64,000 nucleotides of DNA from Escherichia phage vB_EcoM-RPN187. The DNA lies in the sequence record OL770074.2; one strand, given 5' to 3'. The notes beneath the pieces were generated by a model that was not told the origin of the DNA, searched no databases, and saw only the letters and a list, made by a program, of their open reading frames with translations. Position 1 is the stretch's first letter. Every line of letters starts with the position of its first letter. Below are positions 2,520 to 29,645 of the stretch, piece by piece. The translations under genes were made by a program, and so were the position numbers.

Positions 2520-3620
2520 TTACGCTGTGAAGATTTTATCCCACATCGCAACAACTGCATCTCGATTATACTTCTTCCATACTGCTTCAGCACGTTTAAC
2601 TCGAGCTTCGTATGTGTCAGTGAATTCTAATACAGCTTTTGTGTAAAGCGCAACTACTTCTTTCTTAGGAGTAGAGGAATCAATTTCTACACGCACAGTA
2701 TCTGGGTCGTATTCGAATGTCGCATGAGGATAATCCTTAAAAACTAACTGGATTACAGGGACACCTTTAGAGATAGCTTCAATAGAACTATTCTCTACTG
2801 TACCTGTGTCAGGACACGTATTAATAAGTGCTTTAGCTGTTTTAAGACGTTCCATGATTTCACTGTGTGGAGCATCAATAATAACAGGATATTTAGCTGG
2901 TGGTGCCCATTTACTAGGACAGTATCCTACACCATTTTCGCCTAGTGCTTTAATCGCTTCAAGAGCAACATCAGTACGACGCATTTTAGTGTCATAACGT
3001 TGTGCACTAATAATCAAATCAGTCGCCGGAAGAACTTCCGGTTTTTCAGTCAAACAAATAACCGGATAATCTTCGGCTTCAAACAATGGATTTGCTCGCC
3101 AATAATCATAATCAATTTTGTCAGTCAGACCTGAAGTCATATAACAATATTTGCGTTCAAATTCACGGAAGGCTTTAGTAGGAGCATAACTCTTACCACC
3201 ATTCTTATGAATTTGAATAGTCTGGTCCCAAATTTGAACAATGCCACGAGATACTGGTTCAAATGGTGTTGCCATAAAATTCTTATGAACTTTAGAGAGA
3301 CCTGCGTCTTTAATTGCCTGAACGGTTAGTTTAGTCGGTTCCATAGTAACAACAAAATCGTATTCATGGATGCCGGCTAGTTCAACAATCTTACGAGCCA
3401 TAGTATAACTCATACCTAGACTGAATTTAGTCAGATGACCAACAGGATGGTGTGTAACTTTCCAGTCACCAAACGTGTCATTATCAAAGCCGATATAATC
3501 AATATCAGCACCAATAGAAACTAAATATTTCAACACATTTAAATGTACTGCTTCAAGGCCACCTTGTACACGGTCAGGATTAAATGGGACTGCACGAGAT
3601 GGGATAAACATAACTTTCAT
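2520..3620 (-). CDS. GT-B fold glycosyltransferase; candidate DNA (hmC) sugar transferase, Aat-like
   Basis: 366 aa; C-terminal GTVENSSIEAISKGVPVIQ resembles the E..EA..G.PVI sugar-donor motif of GT-B (GT4-like) enzymes; sits between rIIA.1 and gp39. Confidence 0.65.
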   Translation of the reverse strand: MKVMFIPSRAVPFNPDRVQGGLEAVHLNVLKYLVSIGADIDYIGFDNDTFGDWKVTHHPVGHLTKFSLGMSYTMARKIVELAGIHEYDFVVTMEPTKLTVQAIKDAGLSKVHKNFMATPFEPVSRGIVQIWDQTIQIHKNGGKSYAPTKAFREFERKYCYMTSGLTDKIDYDYWRANPLFEAEDYPVICLTEKPEVLPATDLIISAQRYDTKMRRTDVALEAIKALGENGVGYCPSKWAPPAKYPVIIDAPHSEIMERLKTAKALINTCPDTGTVENSSIEAISKGVPVIQLVFKDYPHATFEYDPDTVRVEIDSSTPKKEVVALYTKAVLEFTDTYEARVKRAEAVWKKYNRDAVVAMWDKIFTA

Positions 3621-5971: not shown

Positions 5972-6151
5972 TTAACCCTTCTTAAGTAAGTCGTAAAAAC
6001 CACCGTTCACATGTTTAGGAGCAGAAACCCGACGAGTAGACAGACGATGACATTCAGGGCAAACATCGGTTTCTCGTTCAGAAATCCTTTTAATTTTTTC
6101 ATATTCATGACCACAATCTTCAGATTGACATTTATAGTCGTATAACGGCAT
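5972..6151 (-). CDS. FmdB-family zinc-ribbon small protein (59 aa)
   Basis: my own translation MPLYDYKCQSEDCGHEYE...CPEC; below ORF-track cutoff; fits between neighbours with TAATAATG junction. Confidence 0.5.
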   Translation of the reverse strand: MPLYDYKCQSEDCGHEYEKIKRISERETDVCPECHRLSTRRVSAPKHVNGGFYDLLKKG

Positions 6152-6153
6152 TA

Positions 6154-6564
6154 TTATTCCTTAAAATGTGCTTTCAACATTTGATACAAAGACCATGCCT
6201 GGTCGTTATTTTCGATAGTAATCGTCATCACCGGAAATTCAGACAATTCGTCAAGTTCATCAGAATCTTGCTCTTCGGACGCTTGATATGGATTTTCAAC
6301 TTCATCAAAGAACTCTGCTTCATTCGTGGAGAGCCAGATAAAGTTTTCATCAAGGATATCACCACCTGTTGCGTATCCAACCGTGCCAGTAGATGTCACA
6401 ATTTTAGTAGGACGTCCGAGATGGTCAACATCTAAAATTTTAAAAGGTTCCATGCCAAGACGTCGTGCATAAATCCCATTATCAGTGTGGTCTTTAATAA
6501 ACTCTTCTTGGGCACGTTTATCTATAAATTGGTACCATGAGTTAACTCGGAATTTATTAGCCAT
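6154..6564 (-). CDS. hypothetical acidic protein
   Basis: ORF-track start is TTG; first ATG (MANKFRV) has SD AAGGAAA. Confidence 0.55.
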
Positions 6565-6791
6565 TAGTAAGTTTCCTTCCAATAAGTTGTACCATTTTCA
6601 GTGATTTCACGGAAGATACCATAGATAGGCATTTCATCACCGAGTTTTTCGTAAACGTAAACCACTTCAGTGTAGCATAAAAATTCTGTCCAGTTTTTCT
6701 GTACAACAACTAAATCAGGATTAAACAGAACATCTTCAAACTCATCGATGTTTGAATCAGTAGTTACATTTTTAATGATTTGGCGTTTCAT
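6564..6791 (-). CDS. hypothetical protein (75 aa)
   Basis: ORF-track N-terminus translates the promoter cassette; ATG (MKRQII) with SD GAGGAG chosen. Confidence 0.5.
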
Positions 6792-6819
6792 AATATTCTC
6801 CTCTTGTTTTGATAGGTCT

Positions 6820-6849
6820 ATAGTATCATAGGCCATAGTTGTTGTACAT
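6820..6849 (-). promoter_or_regulatory. early-type promoter cassette, variant -35 TGTACA, -10 TACTAT
   Basis: member of gataggtctata repeat family upstream of gene start. Confidence 0.4.
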
Positions 6850-7373
6850 CATTTTAGCAAAATAAAATCAACTTGTTCTGCCAATGAACGTCTGAACATT
6901 AATTGACAACTTCCGAGGATGAAATCAGGTGCTTCATAGACCGCGATGTAGTATCCTTTAGCTTTCAAGAGTTCAACATCCACCTGGTCATCAAACCATG
7001 CATAAACCGCGTCAACACTTTCAAATCCAAAATAGAACCCTTTAGCCCAATCTTCACTCAATTCAAATGTTTGCTCAATTCTATAGTATCTTAAGATATT
7101 TTGTTCAAGGAGTTTGTCTTCATTTACTGTAGGACGATTAGGGACATTGTAGTTGTCGCCGTGATGGTAGAAGTTACCTGAGAGTATTCCATGCTTATCA
7201 AGGAACTCCCATGTTTCTTCAGAGTTGTCGGTGCCCGACCAACCGTATGGCGAACGAGGTTCTTTATTCCAAGAGGTTTCCCAAATTCTGACGGCTTTAC
7301 CATCTTCGATAGCAATTCCTGGTAATGATTCACGTTGAGTACAAAAACTACGTTCTACGCGGTAAACTAACAT
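6849..7373 (-). CDS. hypothetical protein
   Basis: 174 aa, ATG start. Confidence 0.55.
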   Translation of the reverse strand: MLVYRVERSFCTQRESLPGIAIEDGKAVRIWETSWNKEPRSPYGWSGTDNSEETWEFLDKHGILSGNFYHHGDNYNVPNRPTVNEDKLLEQNILRYYRIEQTFELSEDWAKGFYFGFESVDAVYAWFDDQVDVELLKAKGYYIAVYEAPDFILGSCQLMFRRSLAEQVDFILLK

Positions 7374-7398
7374 ATTATTCTCCTCTGGTTGTTATGGT

Positions 7399-7427
7399 TA
7401 TAATATCAAAACCAGAGGAGAAGTAAA
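7399..7427 (-). promoter_or_regulatory. early promoter cassette: -35 GTTTAC, 17-nt spacer, -10 TATTAT; flanked by 9-bp inverted repeat overlapping the SD
   Basis: read on minus strand; arms cctctggtt 7381-7389 and aaccagagg 7410-7418. Confidence 0.6.
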
Positions 7428-7432
7428 CAACT

Positions 7433-7852
7433 TTATGCGAAAGCAGCTGGGCTATATTTTTTAATTTGGAATTCAGGAACTACCATGAACTGACCAGCGA
7501 AAACGATGTTATAAAGCTTAACACCATCTTCTACCCAACGGTCGCTAATAAATCCGGCGATTTGCTTAGTTTTCCACGGTGTTCCATCAGTTGCCGCAGC
7601 AATAGTGAATTCATGGTCTTTTTCAACAGAAACTGATCTGCATAGTCCCCATTTGAATGCTTTTTCTTCCGGTTCAATGAATTGGCTTTTAACATAACCA
7701 ATGTTACCATCGGCGTCACGAACTTTAACTTCGTTACGTCCAAAAACCGGATCACTCACAGAAAGAACTTCAACCAACTTCCCGGCAACTTTAGAGCGAG
7801 AAGCAACAGATACATATACGTAATCACCTGTAGAGAGATTTACAATATTCAT
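7433..7852 (-). CDS. hypothetical protein, paralog of 7862..8317
   Basis: 139 aa; shares SRSK.AG.LVEV and GFISD.WVEDG.KLYNIVF motifs with neighbour. Confidence 0.55.
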   Translation of the reverse strand: MNIVNLSTGDYVYVSVASRSKVAGKLVEVLSVSDPVFGRNEVKVRDADGNIGYVKSQFIEPEEKAFKWGLCRSVSVEKDHEFTIAAATDGTPWKTKQIAGFISDRWVEDGVKLYNIVFAGQFMVVPEFQIKKYSPAAFA

Positions 7853-23644: not shown

Positions 23645-24544
23645 TTATTCCTCGATTACGACATCTTCATATTTAGGTATATTATACGGCGAAGAAATTA
23701 AAGCATTAAAGTAGATGAACTCGCCAAGACCTGGATGGAATACTTCTTCAGGATTTTCGAAGTATTGAATCTTCGGACGTCCTTTAAGAATTTGATAGTA
23801 CTCAGTTTTAGTTGGTTTAAAAATTCGAATCAGCGCTTCTTCAGGATACTTATTTCTGTCGAAGCTATTATTTGGATCGGTTATATAAAGCGGTTGACCT
23901 AATTGAATTGCACATTCAACCACTTGTTCAAAACGATAACACGGGTCACTAATTCGAAATGGATGAAAAATACCATCTAGATGAATAGGAGCCAAATCAC
24001 CTACAAGACGCTGCATGATGGAAGGACGTATAACTTTCTGGGTTACGATAATCTTATTACCATCTGCACCTGCGTTAACCAGCACTTCTTTTTGACGTTC
24101 ATTCAACACAGTAGTTTGAAGTGAACGATTAACCGACAACATGTCGGTTTTTAAGAATTCGTCAATGTAAAAACGTGGTTTATTAGGGTCTGCAGTGATA
24201 TTGAAATTGAATTCTACATCAAAAGCGCCGTCATATCCAGTGATATCTGTGATTAGAAAATCACAATCATAATAAGCAATTAATGAATCAACCACAAATT
24301 CATTTTCAGACCAGAAATATTTACGAGTGTTATACGCGTTATCTTTATACCATAATGGAACAAACTTAAATTCTGGGAAAAGACGTTCGCATTCTTTAAT
24401 ATCAGATGCATTACGTGGATATGTAATAACATCACCTGGATTAGCACGGTGCAAATGAAGTTGGAAGTTGCCATCCTTAAGGATAGCATACTGTCCAGTT
24501 TCATAAGACCGCATACTCAAGATAGGTACGCGGAAAATAGCCAT
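23645..24544 (-). CDS. hypothetical protein at the T4 beta-glucosyltransferase locus
   Basis: 299 aa, ATG overlapping gp42 stop (TAATG); no motif recognised. Confidence 0.5.
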   Translation of the reverse strand: MAIFRVPILSMRSYETGQYAILKDGNFQLHLHRANPGDVITYPRNASDIKECERLFPEFKFVPLWYKDNAYNTRKYFWSENEFVVDSLIAYYDCDFLITDITGYDGAFDVEFNFNITADPNKPRFYIDEFLKTDMLSVNRSLQTTVLNERQKEVLVNAGADGNKIIVTQKVIRPSIMQRLVGDLAPIHLDGIFHPFRISDPCYRFEQVVECAIQLGQPLYITDPNNSFDRNKYPEEALIRIFKPTKTEYYQILKGRPKIQYFENPEEVFHPGLGEFIYFNALISSPYNIPKYEDVVIEE

Positions 24545-25260
24545 TAGTCAAGAAATCCTTTAACATAATCAAAATCACGTTCAAACACATGGGCACTTAC
24601 CATGGTATGAGTATAATCACCAACTTCTACACCACATTCGTTAGCGATATAATGAAGTAATTTTCCTTGGAGATAAAAATCCAACTGCATAACAACAGCA
24701 CAGTTCTGAGAACGCATATGACAGTGGGTATAAAGCTTACCATCACGAATATAATAAGTCACTGAGTCGGTACATGGATATTCAAGTGTTTCGTCTGAAT
24801 CAAGCAAAGCCTGATCAGAACTTTCTAGAATTTGGAACACAACTCTTCGAGAGTTAGGTTTTTCTTTAAGTTCTTTTAGAAGAGTTGGTAACTGGGCCGC
24901 AATGCGAGGACCATAGAAAGTGTTGAAGTTCGCAGGCAAAGCATCTGATTTTGGTTTAGAAATAAATTTAGCGACGTTAGGATATGCCTTAAATGCTTCT
25001 TCTGCATCAGTACCACCAGAAATCATAAATTTCCAGAAATCTTCAGCATATTCATAAGAGATGCGATTAATACGTGGGTCGGTCATTTTGAATGATGAAG
25101 GGGTATCAACAACTACTGTCATAGACCCAATTTCATTACAACGTCCAATACGAGAATCAGTTACGAATTCCGGGTTTTCTAAAATTTCACGATTGACTGC
25201 TTTAAATGCGGATTGAAAATCTGCGGCTTTAATATATTTCATTGTGTTATGTTTTCCCAT
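24544..25260 (-). CDS. 42: dCMP hydroxymethylase gp42 (thymidylate-synthase fold)
   Basis: 238 aa; CTDSVTYYIRD...MRSQN resembles recalled T4 gp42 active-site region; SD GAGGT. Confidence 0.7.
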   Translation of the reverse strand: MGKHNTMKYIKAADFQSAFKAVNREILENPEFVTDSRIGRCNEIGSMTVVVDTPSSFKMTDPRINRISYEYAEDFWKFMISGGTDAEEAFKAYPNVAKFISKPKSDALPANFNTFYGPRIAAQLPTLLKELKEKPNSRRVVFQILESSDQALLDSDETLEYPCTDSVTYYIRDGKLYTHCHMRSQNCAVVMQLDFYLQGKLLHYIANECGVEVGDYTHTMVSAHVFERDFDYVKGFLD

Positions 25261-25393: not shown

Positions 25394-25543
25394 CTAGTTG
25401 AACAGGTTCTCTTTAATCACTTTAGCCGCTTTAGTTTCAAACAGGCCCATAAGGGCCTTTTTAAGAATTTGTTCGTTGTTGTTAATTTTAATAGTCAAAA
25501 TCTCTTCGTTAAGTTGGTGATTAAAAGTTTTTCTAGAAATCAT
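25394..25543 (-). CDS. possible small ORF (49 aa) coupled to upstream gene by ATGA overlap
   Basis: own translation MISRKTFNHQL...; contains a GGCCC/GGGCC hairpin, so may be non-coding. Confidence 0.25.
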   Translation of the reverse strand: MISRKTFNHQLNEEILTIKINNNEQILKKALMGLFETKAAKVIKENLFN

Positions 25544-26709
25544 TCTGGGTACCTCAAAGCGTCATCAGAGTTAGTTATATCAATAATAGATATAGAGTTT
25601 TCCGATAACCCATTTTTAGATAACTGACGTTTATAATATCTTTCACAATATGTACACGTCGTCCCGCAGATTTCATTAGCACAATCGAAATCTGGATGTT
25701 TGAACCACCTTTTTTCTAAAAAGCCATCTAACAAAGAGGTTTCAATATTTACCGTATGTGAAAACTCAGTCTCATTTTCAAGAGTGAAAATGGTCTCTAA
25801 AGGCTTCCACAATTCCAACAAATTACCTTCAAATTTTTCGGAAGCATAAGCTTCAAGAACTTTCAAAATGTAGTCTGTGCTACCTGTACGTCCTGAAACT
25901 TTGAATTGAGTGATACCAATATCATTATAAAGTTTCAAATCTTGAGGACGAACAAAACGAGTTCTCAACCAGTTAAATGGGTCTGTATCACGAGCTTTAA
26001 TACAGTGTTGCATTGGATATCCATTTAAGGATTTGGCATCATCTACTGTAACGTCGGTGCTATGGAAAATATAGCAAGAGTCACGATAACTACAATGTGT
26101 TGTATACCCTTTACCAGCATTAGAACAGAACTCATTTACAAGAACTTCAAATATTATATTGTTCTTATTGCAAAACTCTGCTGCACGCTTCAGGAAAGAA
26201 ACTGAACGGTTCTTATGAATTCCACAACAGACCTTTTTGATATTATACTGGTCATGCAAGTATTTGATTTGAGTTACAGCATCGACATGTAGAATTGTTG
26301 AAACTTCAATCTCAATGTCTTTATTGACTTCACGAACAATTTCCATAACAACAGGGTTAGCGATAGTAATACGCCATACGCCTATTGACCAAAGATACTG
26401 AACATAATCCTGAATAGCTTTCTTCTTCCACTCAACTAGTTCTCTTTTTGAACCAGGATTTATCGTGTTGAGTGTATAGTTAAAGCAAATACCTAATTCG
26501 TTACAACGTTTAACGTAATCTTCTAACATCTTTTTGTCAACGTCAGGAAGCCTAAAATCAGGTCTGGCTGCTACAAAAGCCATTTCTCTTGTAGAGCCGT
26601 ATACTTCGTTTATCAAGCTATTAGGATAAGTTTTATTGAGCTCTACGATTTTATCAAGAAGAGCTAAATCAAAATTCGTTCCGATTTTAAAGGTATTCAT
26701 TTTTTGCAT
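25540..26709 (-). CDS. hypothetical protein with weak resemblance to peptidase U32 (PrtC/RlhA/UbiU-type) family
   Basis: 389 aa; Cys-rich EFCSNAGKGYTTHCS and FKVSGRTGS reminiscent of U32 signature/LKIEGR motif; assignment tentative. Confidence 0.45.
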   Translation of the reverse strand: MQKMNTFKIGTNFDLALLDKIVELNKTYPNSLINEVYGSTREMAFVAARPDFRLPDVDKKMLEDYVKRCNELGICFNYTLNTINPGSKRELVEWKKKAIQDYVQYLWSIGVWRITIANPVVMEIVREVNKDIEIEVSTILHVDAVTQIKYLHDQYNIKKVCCGIHKNRSVSFLKRAAEFCNKNNIIFEVLVNEFCSNAGKGYTTHCSYRDSCYIFHSTDVTVDDAKSLNGYPMQHCIKARDTDPFNWLRTRFVRPQDLKLYNDIGITQFKVSGRTGSTDYILKVLEAYASEKFEGNLLELWKPLETIFTLENETEFSHTVNIETSLLDGFLEKRWFKHPDFDCANEICGTTCTYCERYYKRQLSKNGLSENSISIIDITNSDDALRYPE

Positions 26710-26756: not shown

Positions 26757-27158
26757 TTATAGATTCGGTTTATATGATTTAAATGTTTCGAATTCGCCTT
26801 TATTCATAAGAGCTTTGAATTCGTCAGGACGCATAGCTTTGTCGTCGATAATCCAATCATATACTGGTTTATGTGTTAGCAAATTATGGTACTTCAATCC
26901 AATGTTTGCCAAGTTCTGAATCAGACTTGGGAGAATGTCAATTGCTATACGACCCGGACCGACTGACTTCATACCGCGAGCAGTGTAAAGCGTTATGGTA
27001 TGCCCTGCATCATACAGGGCATTAATGGCAGACACCATTTCGACGTCTGGTTTGAAGTTCACGTAATCACGATTGTTATTCCACTCTGTTATACAATCAT
27101 CGACATCAAAACAAAGATTAAGCATGTTTTCTACACGGTGCATTAGATTCGTTCCCAT
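26757..27158 (-). CDS. small HAD-superfamily-like phosphatase (start uncertain)
   Basis: LCFDVDDCIT resembles HAD motif I; alternative starts at M6 (TAATG coupling) or M12. Confidence 0.45.
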   Translation of the reverse strand: MGTNLMHRVENMLNLCFDVDDCITEWNNNRDYVNFKPDVEMVSAINALYDAGHTITLYTARGMKSVGPGRIAIDILPSLIQNLANIGLKYHNLLTHKPVYDWIIDDKAMRPDEFKALMNKGEFETFKSYKPNL

Positions 27159-28828
27159 TGATGAGTGATATCGCCACCGATTGGACGATAGGAAACACCA
27201 GTTTCTTTATCAGTTAGTACCCATTTACCAGGATTTTTTGTAATCAGAGTAGCCGTTACAGGTTCTGCTACGTCATAACTAATAGAGCCGTCCTGAAGTA
27301 CACGGCCCATGTTACGTAATTGCTTAGTCAGAAGTTCCATACCTTTATAATATGCGGCTACCGCTTTAAGTGGATTATTCTTGAAATAACCACCTAATGC
27401 AATCCAGATAATTGCCACTGCCAAATGATGATACTCGTTAAACGAACTCATCTTTCCATATTTGTAAACTAATGGATTGATGTTAATAGTCACATTACAA
27501 GTTGTTTCATCAATAGTAAACTGTCCCCAGGTCGGATTAGCGTTGAATTCATCATACCCTGAAACAGCATAAAGCACTTTAGCTTCGTCATACAATTTTG
27601 GCCCGTAAATCTTGGTTTCACCAAAATATCCACGAGGGTCAATAAACTTGACTTCACCATTATCAGTAATCATAGTATTACTGAAGTTCGGGTCACCATG
27701 AATAACAGAGTACTGTCCCTGAGAACGGTTATGATAACGAATAAGGTGTTCTAAAGCTTGTCTCAACATTGGCTTCAGACGTCCAATCTTAGTGTAGTTC
27801 ACATGTGTGATTTTACCAAATGAATCAATCAATGGTTGAATACTTTCACAACGATCAATAACTTTCGTATAGAATTCTTTAGTGAAATCACGACGAACAG
27901 TTTCAGGACTTACAAAATAAGTGTCTGTGCTGAATTTCAGTGCATCTAAAATTGCATCAACAATTTGTGGACGAGCAAGACTTGATTTGGATTTAATATA
28001 TTCAAATGCCGGCTTACCTTTAATGCGTTCCATTTCAAAGTTATTTTCATTAACAGAAACTAACTGAGGAACTGAATCTGATTTCACTTTAAGATACCAT
28101 GAAATCTCATCTTTCTGAAGAGCTCGGCCCTGTTCGGTTAATGCGAATTTAGTTACAGTTTCTTCACCAATTTCAACTGCGTTAAAACTACGATTAAGTT
28201 CACGAACTTCATGAGCTTTTTCAAGTTTAGGCATATCACCTAAATCAATTAGATTCATAAGCTCTGATTTATTGAATGCGCTGCCGTAAAGGAATTCTAC
28301 GAAATCACGTCCTTTGCAGTATTCATGAATTTCCTCATCAGTAGAACCCATATAGAATTCCCAGTCTTTGAACTGATAAATTCCTACAACATTACCACCT
28401 GTTGAACCTACGTTAGTGATATTTTCACCGTCGAAATTATATCGACATTCGTCGCCCTTAACATAGATTGCGTTAACATTCCAAGACCACGAACCAAAAT
28501 CAGGAATAATATCACACCAGTTAACAATTACATTATGGCCGTCTAAATCTTTGTGCAATTTAGCAAGAGCATAAGCAGAACCATATGCTTCATCAACTGT
28601 ACGAATAGTCACATTGAACCCTTCTTGCTCACAATAAGCTCGAACAGTTTCAGCAAATTTTGAATGAACTACTACAATAATTTCATCTGCGCCAAGGTCA
28701 GAATAAATTGTATACAAATTGCTCAGAATAGTGTCTTGTTTATAGTTAACAAGCACCTTAGGAATATGATGCGTTATTGGATACAAACGAGTTGCCAGTC
28801 CAGCACCAAGAATAACAGCTTTTTTCAT
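27143..28828 (-). CDS. bifunctional sugar-phosphate nucleotidyltransferase (N-terminal) / APH-like kinase (C-terminal)
   Basis: 561 aa; N-terminal ILGAGLATRL (GxGxR NTase motif); C-terminal HGDPNFSNTMI and FIDPRGYFG (Brenner/APH kinase motifs); SD GAGGA. Confidence 0.7.
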   Translation of the reverse strand: MKKAVILGAGLATRLYPITHHIPKVLVNYKQDTILSNLYTIYSDLGADEIIVVVHSKFAETVRAYCEQEGFNVTIRTVDEAYGSAYALAKLHKDLDGHNVIVNWCDIIPDFGSWSWNVNAIYVKGDECRYNFDGENITNVGSTGGNVVGIYQFKDWEFYMGSTDEEIHEYCKGRDFVEFLYGSAFNKSELMNLIDLGDMPKLEKAHEVRELNRSFNAVEIGEETVTKFALTEQGRALQKDEISWYLKVKSDSVPQLVSVNENNFEMERIKGKPAFEYIKSKSSLARPQIVDAILDALKFSTDTYFVSPETVRRDFTKEFYTKVIDRCESIQPLIDSFGKITHVNYTKIGRLKPMLRQALEHLIRYHNRSQGQYSVIHGDPNFSNTMITDNGEVKFIDPRGYFGETKIYGPKLYDEAKVLYAVSGYDEFNANPTWGQFTIDETTCNVTININPLVYKYGKMSSFNEYHHLAVAIIWIALGGYFKNNPLKAVAAYYKGMELLTKQLRNMGRVLQDGSISYDVAEPVTATLITKNPGKWVLTDKETGVSYRPIGGDITHQWERI

Positions 28829-28869: not shown

Positions 28870-29013
28870 CTAGTTAAAGCATTCATACTTTGCTTGTAGT
28901 CCAATCATAATCCATCCGATTATAAGAGTCGGAATCATTACTGGAGCCGTTAAGCTCCAGTAGATAGTCATGACAAGCATCAATAGTAAAAGTCCTATTG
29001 TTATTGCTTTCAT
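28870..29013 (-). CDS. possible small two-TM membrane protein (47 aa), coupled to the SIS gene stop
   Basis: own translation MKAITIGLLLLMLVMTIYW...; ATG overlaps upstream TGA. Confidence 0.4.
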   Translation of the reverse strand: MKAITIGLLLLMLVMTIYWSLTAPVMIPTLIIGWIMIGLQAKYECFN

Positions 29014-29645
29014 TGTTCGCCTCGTAACATGGCACCTAGTGCACCGCCAGGGTGGAACTTAAGGAAGTCATTAGAGGTAAATCCACGTTCAGACGAAAGG
29101 TTGATAGCAAACGTATCGATAAGCGCTAACAACAATGTAGTGGACATGGTCGGAGCCAGAGAATTCTCATCAACCTCTACTGCGATGCCTGTACAGAACG
29201 TATAATCAAAAAGAGCTTCGTATTCTTGTGGAATGTCCGGGTTACAATGCAACAGAATCTGTTTGACGTTCGGACGAATCATTTTAAGATGCTTAGCCAC
29301 GCCTATCATTTCTTCAGTTTTACCAGAACGACTAATATGAATCAACACATCATTAGGCGCAATGAATCCTGCATCACCGTGAGAATAATGTCCAGTGTTC
29401 AAGTACATACTCGGGATACCGAGTGAAGCAAATGTCTCAGAAGCTTTAGTTGCAATATTAGCATTCTTACCAACACCTGTAATAATTACTCGGCTTTCAT
29501 AATTACTAAGTCCAGGACGTCGAAGAGTTTCTAGAATAGCATTATAACGAGCAGGGTTTTGACTAATTACTTTGGCCATAGCGGCCAAAGAAGAAGCTTG
29601 TTTTATGATTGCGTCAATAGCGATAGTAATAGGAGTAGTTTTCAT
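29010..29645 (-). CDS. SIS-domain sugar-phosphate isomerase (KdsD/GutQ-like arabinose-5-phosphate isomerase)
   Basis: 211 aa; ITGVGKNANIA and ISRSGKTEE SIS motifs; SD GAGAG. Confidence 0.7.
   Translation of the reverse strand: MKTTPITIAIDAIIKQASSLAAMAKVISQNPARYNAILETLRRPGLSNYESRVIITGVGKNANIATKASETFASLGIPSMYLNTGHYSHGDAGFIAPNDVLIHISRSGKTEEMIGVAKHLKMIRPNVKQILLHCNPDIPQEYEALFDYTFCTGIAVEVDENSLAPTMSTTLLLALIDTFAINLSSERGFTSNDFLKFHPGGALGAMLRGEQ

Follow-up and report, generated by a model that had tools for sequence, protein, structure and literature searches.

The DNA of phage RB69 bears arabinosylated 5-hydroxycytosine (Lee et al., NAR 2026, PMC13326640). In the same study, RB69 gp51 and gp81 of Acinetobacter phage DLP3 are treated as HAD-like phosphatases analogous to AfhF of phage HY126, and gp55-type isomerases are assigned the conversion of ribulose 5-phosphate into arabinofuranose 5-phosphate (Araf5P). 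According to the account that Lee et al. (PMC13326640) give of the work of He et al. (Nat Chem Biol 2026), AfhE phosphorylates Araf5P at C1 to form Araf1,5P2 before AfhF acts, AfhF is a Mg2+-dependent phosphatase that converts Araf1,5P into Araf1P, and the N-terminal domain of AfhE carries out the final step, in which UDP-Araf is made. Table 1 of Lee et al. (PMC13326640) differs from the text of that paper, stating instead that gp51/gp81 "dephosphorylates Araf5p to Ara".

Here, we analyzed a 64,000-nucleotide stretch of the genome of Escherichia phage vB_EcoM-RPN187 (record OL770074.2), referred to below as the window. An open reading frame located on its minus strand (26757..27158; 133 aa when counted from the first ATG) had been described in the initial annotation as a small HAD-like phosphatase within a modification island, and this description holds. 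When translated from its second ATG, the protein is identical to HY126 XAN60478.1 over all 128 residues, differs from RB69 gp51 (NP_861741.1) at a single position (127/128, 99%), and corresponds with 100% identity to residues 7-134 of PDB entry 9iqw (E 1.8e-87), which was deposited with four chains as "Capsule biosynthesis protein"; moreover, its HAD motifs are invariant among homologues. We take XAN60478.1 to be the protein named AfhF, given the equivalence of gp51 and AfhF in PMC13326640. A neighbouring thymidylate-synthase homologue matches PDB entries 9iqc, 9ir2 and 9iqu, and the adjacent entry codes suggest that these three and 9iqw constitute one deposition series.

Mosigvirus comprises the RB69-like T4-type coliphages, and the 6.1-kb stretch around the HAD gene has 97.5-99.3% DNA identity to many genomes of this genus, including AV112/AV113, F2 and HY126. 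Compared with HY126 AfhF, the gene occupies the same site directly downstream of AfhE in the same arabinosyl-5-hydroxycytosine cluster, and there is no substantive difference between the two other than their origin from distinct Mosigvirus isolates with 97.5% DNA identity across the cluster. We are therefore highly confident that the gene at 26757..27143 (minus strand, second ATG through stop) is the Mosigvirus orthologue of afhF and of RB69 gene 51, and that it encodes a 128-aa capless, Mg2+-dependent HAD phosphatase of the UDP-Araf route, its activity and substrate being taken from the literature as relayed by Lee et al. Both the gene and the step are already known, as the phosphatase has been characterized and the structure of an identical protein has been deposited.

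The gene contains three in-frame ATG codons, which begin at 27158, 27143 and 27125 and would give proteins of 133, 128 and 122 aa, respectively. The first and the third are 33 nt apart, and the ambiguity of the start that had been pointed out for this region is real. The length of about 125-133 aa that had been proposed is correct at its upper end, which corresponds to the first ATG, but not at its lower end, as the shortest form would have 122 aa. The second ATG (27143-27141) shares one base with the TAA stop codon of afhE (27145-27143) in a TAATG overlap (27141..27145, minus strand), and it is preceded at 8 nt by the Shine-Dalgarno-like element TGGGAA (27152..27157, minus strand), with an anti-Shine-Dalgarno duplex of -4.2 kcal/mol. 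The GenBank records and the crystallized 9iqw construct also begin at this codon. In the 9iqw chain a His precedes the Met, which looks like the remnant of an NdeI/His-tag junction, and therefore the crystallized construct began at the second ATG.

Related phages provide comparative evidence for the same start. In Dhakavirus IME08, which shares the TAATG junction, the protein begins with M-S-HRVEN and has no Met where the third ATG would be. This Met is also missing from PM2 and P0004, in which the upstream (H/N)RVEN is conserved. In Winklervirus CHI14 the ATG has the same position and is preceded by the same GGGAACGAATC sequence, including a Shine-Dalgarno-like element identical to that of the window, 7 nt before the start. 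Because of the TAATG overlap, the TGGGAA element and this comparative start-site evidence, the 128-aa form initiated at 27143 is most likely the product of the gene. The overlap itself suggests that translation of AfhF could be coupled to that of AfhE.

The two other candidate starts were rejected. The first ATG arises from the AfhE codons CAA-TGG (Q-W) and is a by-product of them; its best anti-Shine-Dalgarno duplex is -1.9 kcal/mol at 11 nt, and no Shine-Dalgarno sequence is found at a usable spacing. The in-frame extension that it would add, MGTNL (27144..27158, minus strand), falls within the 3'-terminal part of the afhE gene and probably remains untranslated. The third ATG (27123..27125, minus strand), which encodes Met7 of the 128-aa form, matches the N-terminus of shorter homologues, and in 23 of the 48 homologue clusters the protein begins five residues before the nucleophilic Asp. 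As a main start it is disfavored by the lack of a Shine-Dalgarno-like sequence (+0.2 kcal/mol) and by the relatives without that Met, which nevertheless retain the upstream HRVEN. A 122-aa form, in which the full catalytic core is kept, could still be made from the third ATG as a minor product.

Assignment to the HAD superfamily is based on four motifs that occur in canonical order and are invariant in homologue alignments of 18 and 31 sequences (A1 and A2). Motif I, DVDDC (27093..27107, minus strand), contains D13, which is predicted to be the nucleophile, and D15, which would serve as general acid/base. It is followed by Thr54 of motif II (26982..26984, context LYTARG), Lys92 of motif III (26868..26870, context THKPVYD) and Asp100-Asp101 of motif IV (26841..26846, context IIDDK), the last two residues being the predicted Mg2+ ligands (all on the minus strand). 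The peptide LCFDVDDCIT had been singled out as HAD motif I, correctly so, as it is present in a genuine reading frame and both of its catalytic Asp residues are invariant. The motif is slightly atypical: the HAD consensus is DxDx(T/V), and Cys17 is found here instead of the usual Thr. At this D+4 position Thr, as in the canonical DxDxT, is present in 45 of the 48 homologue clusters and Cys in three, namely the Mosigvirus, PM2 and P0003 clusters.

A Pfam scan of the protein alone gave no match at E<=1. The NCBIfam model TIGR01689, "capsule biosynthesis phosphatase", matches it with E 3.8e-13, well outside what chance would produce, and is matched by all 18 homologues examined. The protein is thus related to the EcbF-BcbF subfamily represented by TIGR01689, yet it lies outside of it, because its score of 49.5 bits is below the curated cut-off of 162 bits. 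Its nearest structural relative besides 9iqw is PDB 1xpj, a hypothetical protein from Vibrio cholerae (E 4.9e-10 with the single sequence and 8.4e-16 with a profile), and the profile search of the PDB recovered no HAD structures other than these two. The proteins of the 1xpj/TIGR01689 type are capless, HAD-like and of about 126 aa, as is this one, and the alignment is nearly full-length; the setting differs, being capsule biosynthesis for TIGR01689 and phage DNA modification here. A literature search on "1XPJ" retrieved nothing describing its fold, and a single-sequence AlphaFold2 model of the phage protein had a pLDDT of 37.9, too low to be usable.

It had also been expected that the protein would prove to be HAD-IIIA and KdsC-like. 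As to the first part, the HAD-SF-IIIA model TIGR01662 matches the protein with E 0.024 and 14.7 bits, below its cut-off of 44.6, and 17 of the 18 homologues match HAD-SF-IIIA weakly (best 1.2e-4). Matches to HAD-SF-IIB and, weakly, to Pfam Hydrolase_3 (best 0.002) were each obtained for 13 of the 18. The second part fails at the family level, since the canonical KdsC/YrbI model is not among the NCBIfam matches of any of the 18 family members at E<=1, and the nearest type is that of TIGR01689 and 1xpj. There are nevertheless similarities with KdsC, itself a HAD-IIIA enzyme: both proteins are small HADs without an inserted cap, and the phosphate removed by KdsC, like the one that AfhF would remove, is terminal and stems from arabinose 5-phosphate. 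Furthermore, bacterial relatives of the phage protein do occupy the position of KdsC in Kdo operons, upstream of KdsD-like and KdsA genes, whereas the phage has neither KdsA nor KdsB.

Two other labels were considered and discarded. "Phosphoheptose isomerase", used in RefSeq and for PHROG 1238, is a propagated misnomer, as no SIS domain was found in the HAD protein with Pfam or NCBIfam. Membership in the GmhB family was rejected because, when A2 was compared by hhalign with E. coli GmhB, the sequence of which was checked against PDB 2gmw, only 46 columns covering motifs I-II could be aligned (E 0.0032, probability 9.9%).

The genes on the minus strand are ordered as DNA polymerase (gene 43), SIS isomerase, a 47-aa hydrophobic ORF, AfhE, the HAD gene, a U32-family protein (25540-26709), the thymidylate-synthase homologue (24544-25260) and a 299-aa protein (23645-24544). 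AfhE (27143..28828, 561 aa) is the orthologue of RB69 gp52:53 and combines a putative N-terminal sugar-1-phosphate nucleotidyltransferase (Pfam NTP_transferase, E 8.6e-10, residues 3-99) with a C-terminal domain resembling APH/choline kinases (weak kinase-family matches, residues 344-409); it matches PHROG 4098. The SIS-only protein encoded at 29010..29645 is the orthologue of RB69 gp55 and has the features of an arabinose-5-phosphate isomerase, with matches to Pfam SIS (E 1.7e-10) and to the NCBIfam models KpsF/GutQ (E 2.2e-32) and KdsD (E 1.2e-30), in agreement with its assignment by Lee et al. (PMC13326640).

The HAD gene is found directly downstream of an AfhE-type gene in Mosigvirus, Dhakavirus IME08, Winklervirus CHI14 and Acajnonavirus Acj9. 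A tblastn search of 50,697 phage records identified 383 with the HAD and 376 with AfhE, and the two counts are equal within each of the main host genera: Escherichia (176), Acinetobacter (57), Klebsiella (25), Shigella (15), Serratia (9), Enterobacter (9), Proteus (7) and Yersinia (6). In Acj9 the HAD gene adjoins AfhE and the isomerase, and gene 40 separates it from the block of synthase, glycosyltransferase and kinase genes. This co-occurrence argues for a role of the putative phosphatase in the sugar pathway and against one in the nucleotide pool.

The latter possibility deserves consideration, as the top Foldseek match of RB69 gp51 in the AlphaFold database was annotated as "putative 5'(3')-deoxyribonucleotidase" (Lee et al., PMC13326640), and the cluster also contains a 5hodCMP synthase and a nucleotide kinase. 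The protein could then be a nucleotidase that shapes the phage pool by acting on dCMP, 5-hydroxy-dCMP or other nucleotides. We consider this very unlikely. The HAD gene travels with AfhE and not with the thymidylate-synthase homologue, as the layout of Acj9 illustrates; its bacterial relatives are found in sugar contexts, either in Kdo operons or fused to CMP-sugar synthetases; and the activity relayed in PMC13326640 is on a sugar bisphosphate.

If the protein is a sugar phosphatase, the question is at which step it acts. In the pathway that we favor, the SIS-domain isomerase would convert ribulose 5-phosphate into D-arabinose 5-phosphate, the kinase domain of AfhE would phosphorylate the anomeric carbon to give arabinofuranose 1,5-bisphosphate, and AfhF would remove the 5-phosphate to leave arabinofuranose 1-phosphate. 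In the chemistry predicted for AfhF, D13 would form an aspartyl-phosphate intermediate and D15 would act as acid/base, T54 and K92 would bind the phosphate, and D100/D101 would hold Mg2+. The nucleotidyltransferase domain of AfhE would then produce UDP-arabinofuranose from arabinofuranose 1-phosphate, and phage glycosyltransferases would move the arabinose onto the 5-hydroxycytosine of the DNA. A phosphate on O5 should bar closure of the pyranose ring, and its removal only after phosphorylation of C1 would fix the sugar in the furanose form that arabinofuranosylation requires.

A precedent for this logic is found in the synthesis of ADP-heptose by GmhA, HldE and GmhB, where the substrate of the phosphatase is a sugar bisphosphate and its step comes after that of the kinase and before that of the nucleotidyltransferase. 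The arrangement of isomerase, bifunctional enzyme and HAD in the phage is consistent by analogy with the order Araf5P, Araf1,5P2, Araf1P and UDP-Araf. In both systems a HAD without a separate cap domain would remove the distal phosphate of a sugar bisphosphate between two HldE-type steps. However, AfhF and GmhB belong to different sequence families and their sugars differ (a pentofuranose here, a heptose there), and the AfhE kinase is of the APH/choline-kinase-like type and not PfkB-like.

The initial annotation had proposed a sugar-phosphate phosphatase that hands its product to an anomeric kinase. The enzyme class and the pathway are supported, but the order is not, as the kinase probably acts first and the phosphatase on the resulting bisphosphate, according to the work that PMC13326640 summarizes. 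The reverse sequence, in which D-arabinose 5-phosphate would be dephosphorylated to free arabinose, then phosphorylated at C1 by the AfhE kinase and finally used for nucleotidyl transfer, is the one listed in Table 1 of Lee et al. (PMC13326640), where gp51 and DLP3 gp81 are given the Araf5P-to-Ara reaction quoted above and the kinase domain "phosphorylates Ara to Araf1p"; and sequence by itself does not separate a monophosphate from a bisphosphate substrate. It is nevertheless improbable. The text of PMC13326640, which refers to in vitro experiments with the identical HY126 protein, has AfhE forming Araf1,5P and AfhF then releasing Araf1P. The 5-phosphate would block pyranose closure, and D-arabinose freed of it would lose this constraint to the furanose form; the gene layout mirrors that of the heptose route and its bisphosphate-acting phosphatase; and a homologue from a cyanophage is encoded among genes for a PfkB kinase, a cytidylyltransferase-like protein and an epimerase.

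The gene would thus account for one step toward UDP-arabinofuranose, the donor for arabinosyl-5-hydroxycytosine, a hypermodification that shields RB69-like phages against restriction enzymes and influences their sensitivity to other defence systems. Publication of this step dates from 2025-2026 and a structure of the identical protein has been deposited, so that the locus brings no new biology. Its value is corrective, since public records name the product "phosphoheptose isomerase", "haloacid dehydrogenase" or "hypothetical protein", whereas it should be annotated as arabinofuranose-1,5-bisphosphate 5-phosphatase (AfhF), 128 aa, with the start ATG overlapping the AfhE stop codon.

Homologues outside the phages point to a broader family of such mini-HADs. 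Among 1.84 billion representative proteins, 963 relatives were found at E<=1e-3 and only four at E<=1e-30, and many of the 963 are fusion proteins of 340-400 aa. A search through the genomes of bacteria and archaea yielded 34 loci. In 16 of the 30 strong-match non-phage loci, all of them from Chitinophagales/Sphingobacteriales, the gene directly after the mini-HAD encodes a SIS-only protein with 33-38% identity to the phage isomerase, and in 13 of these 16 a KdsA homologue comes next. In other phyla, the HAD is a C-terminal domain fused to a CTP_transf_3 cytidylyltransferase (KdsB/NeuA-type) or to a NAD-dependent epimerase. Gene context, taken by itself, suggests that the family consists of terminal-phosphate sugar phosphatases, and on the same grounds the HAD and isomerase pair of the phage may descend from a Kdo-type operon.

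These bacterial loci raise the possibility that the phage protein has kept the inferred ancestral role and acts on host Kdo metabolism as a Kdo-8-phosphate-type phosphatase, that is, as an analogue of KdsC. Such a role would fit with the SIS isomerase that comes directly after the homologue in 16 of the 30 bacterial loci, with the KdsA gene that is also present in 13 of them, and with the KdsD-like isomerase carried by the phage itself. Against it, neither a KdsA nor a KdsB homologue is present in the phage cluster; the HAD gene co-occurs with AfhE, to which it also appears to be linked in translation; the bacterial relatives are only 30-42% identical; and the published activity, as relayed in PMC13326640, is on Araf1,5P2. 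A present-day function in Kdo metabolism is therefore highly improbable, and the role of AfhF in the UDP-Araf route is retained.

The various contexts can also be combined into one reading, which we offer tentatively and regard as possible rather than likely. Mini-HADs of the 1xpj/AfhF type would be an unrecognized class of terminal-phosphate phosphatases of ulosonic-acid pathways, replacing KdsC non-orthologously in Chitinophagales and being fused to CMP-sugar synthetases in other phyla. T4-like phages would have captured a linked HAD and SIS pair from a Kdo-type operon, and the phosphatase would have been re-specialized from Kdo8P to arabinofuranose 1,5-bisphosphate. What would connect the two substrates is that the phosphate-bearing end of both comes from arabinose 5-phosphate.

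One of the 34 loci (L008), binned as a bacterium, is evidently a 167-kb contig of a T4-like phage, in which the isomerase, AfhE and the HAD follow each other in the phage order. In cyanophage S-SSM7, a 38%-identical homologue is located among genes for a PfkB kinase, a cytidylyltransferase-like protein, a cupin and an epimerase.

Among the Chitinophagales and Sphingobacteriales, homologues of the phage mini-HAD phosphatase (30-42% identity) were found in a gene context in which a SIS-only isomerase gene lies directly 3'. This isomerase in turn shares 33-38% identity with the arabinose-5-phosphate isomerase of the phage. The mini-HAD and SIS-only pair was present at L011:5980-7704, L010, L014-L018, L020-L024, L033 and L035-L037 of the compared loci, and at 13 loci the gene of KdsA (DAHP_synth_1) is the third in the row after mini-HAD and isomerase. 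The mini-HAD locus of these bacteria is a Kdo operon, and the HAD protein occupies the position expected for KdsC. In other bacterial phyla the HAD domain constitutes the C-terminal part of fusion proteins of 341-417 amino acids, the partner being a CTP_transf_3 domain, that is, a CMP-sugar synthetase of the KdsB/NeuA type (L009:3543-4568, L012:5068-6321, L019:5302-6345, L025:265-1386, L030:5194-6312 and L031:5302-6336). A 477-aa protein at L013:4891-6324 has HAD fused to an NAD-dependent epimerase.

The genes for the isomerase, AfhE and HAD are arranged as in phages, with 55-61% identity, on contig CAVJPU010000002.1 (L008), deposited under the label "bacterium isolate ... cleanbin". Its 167,038 bp match the size of a T4-like genome, so the contig is probably that of a phage and was misassigned to a bacterium during binning. 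Synechococcus phage S-SSM7 encodes a HAD homologue with 38% identity, annotated as "phosphoheptose isomerase", among genes for a cytidylyltransferase-like protein, a PfkB carbohydrate kinase, a cupin, a 2OG-Fe(II) oxygenase and an NAD-dependent epimerase (L006:2941-7099), a gene layout that resembles HldE/GmhB/HldD and would yield a sugar nucleotide. Dhakavirus IME08 possesses AfhE (the nucleotidyltransferase and kinase protein), HAD, a nucleotide kinase, a thymidylate-synthase homologue and a glycosyltransferase (L004:2452-7496), and neither an arabinose-5-phosphate isomerase nor a U32 gene adjoins this cluster. In the absence of a clustered isomerase, arabinose 5-phosphate would therefore presumably be supplied to IME08 by host KdsD/GutQ.

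The U32 gene, which is also missing from the Acj9 cluster, is located in the window between the 5-hydroxy-dCMP synthase gene and the HAD gene (25540-26709, minus strand). It encodes a 389-aa protein of the U32 "peptidase" family (Pfam E-value 6.4e-11) with a weak match to UbiU. Since members of the U32 family include the O2-independent hydroxylases RlhA, TrhP and UbiU/V, this protein could provide an oxygen-independent route to 5-hydroxycytosine. Its sole label in the study of arabinosylated RB69 DNA is "sugar or heterocycle reductase" (Lee et al., 2026; PMC13326640).

Several public records of these genes are misleading. The HAD gene (window 26757-27143) is commonly mislabelled "phosphoheptose isomerase", as in the RefSeq entries of RB69, IME08, Acj9 and CHI14 and in PHROG 1238, and is called "haloacid dehydrogenase" in one record. 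The HAD protein of the window lacks a SIS domain, and the isomerase label therefore seems to be an error carried over from one annotation to the next. In the RB69 reference NC_004928 (L003), AfhE is divided into ORF052c and ORF053c (6095-7781) and ORF046c and ORF047c (2598-3498) are likewise two pieces of the 299-aa glycosyltransferase; these splits have been blamed on sequencing errors (Lee et al., 2026; PMC13326640). Both AfhE (561 aa) and the glycosyltransferase (299 aa) are single unbroken ORFs in the window, which agrees with that account. Finally, the interval between the genes of the isomerase and AfhE contains a strongly hydrophobic 47-aa ORF beginning MKAITIGLLLLMLVMTIYWSL (window 28870-29013, minus strand); this ORF is recorded in relatives either as hypothetical or as "putative phosphosugar isomerase", the latter being a wrong annotation.
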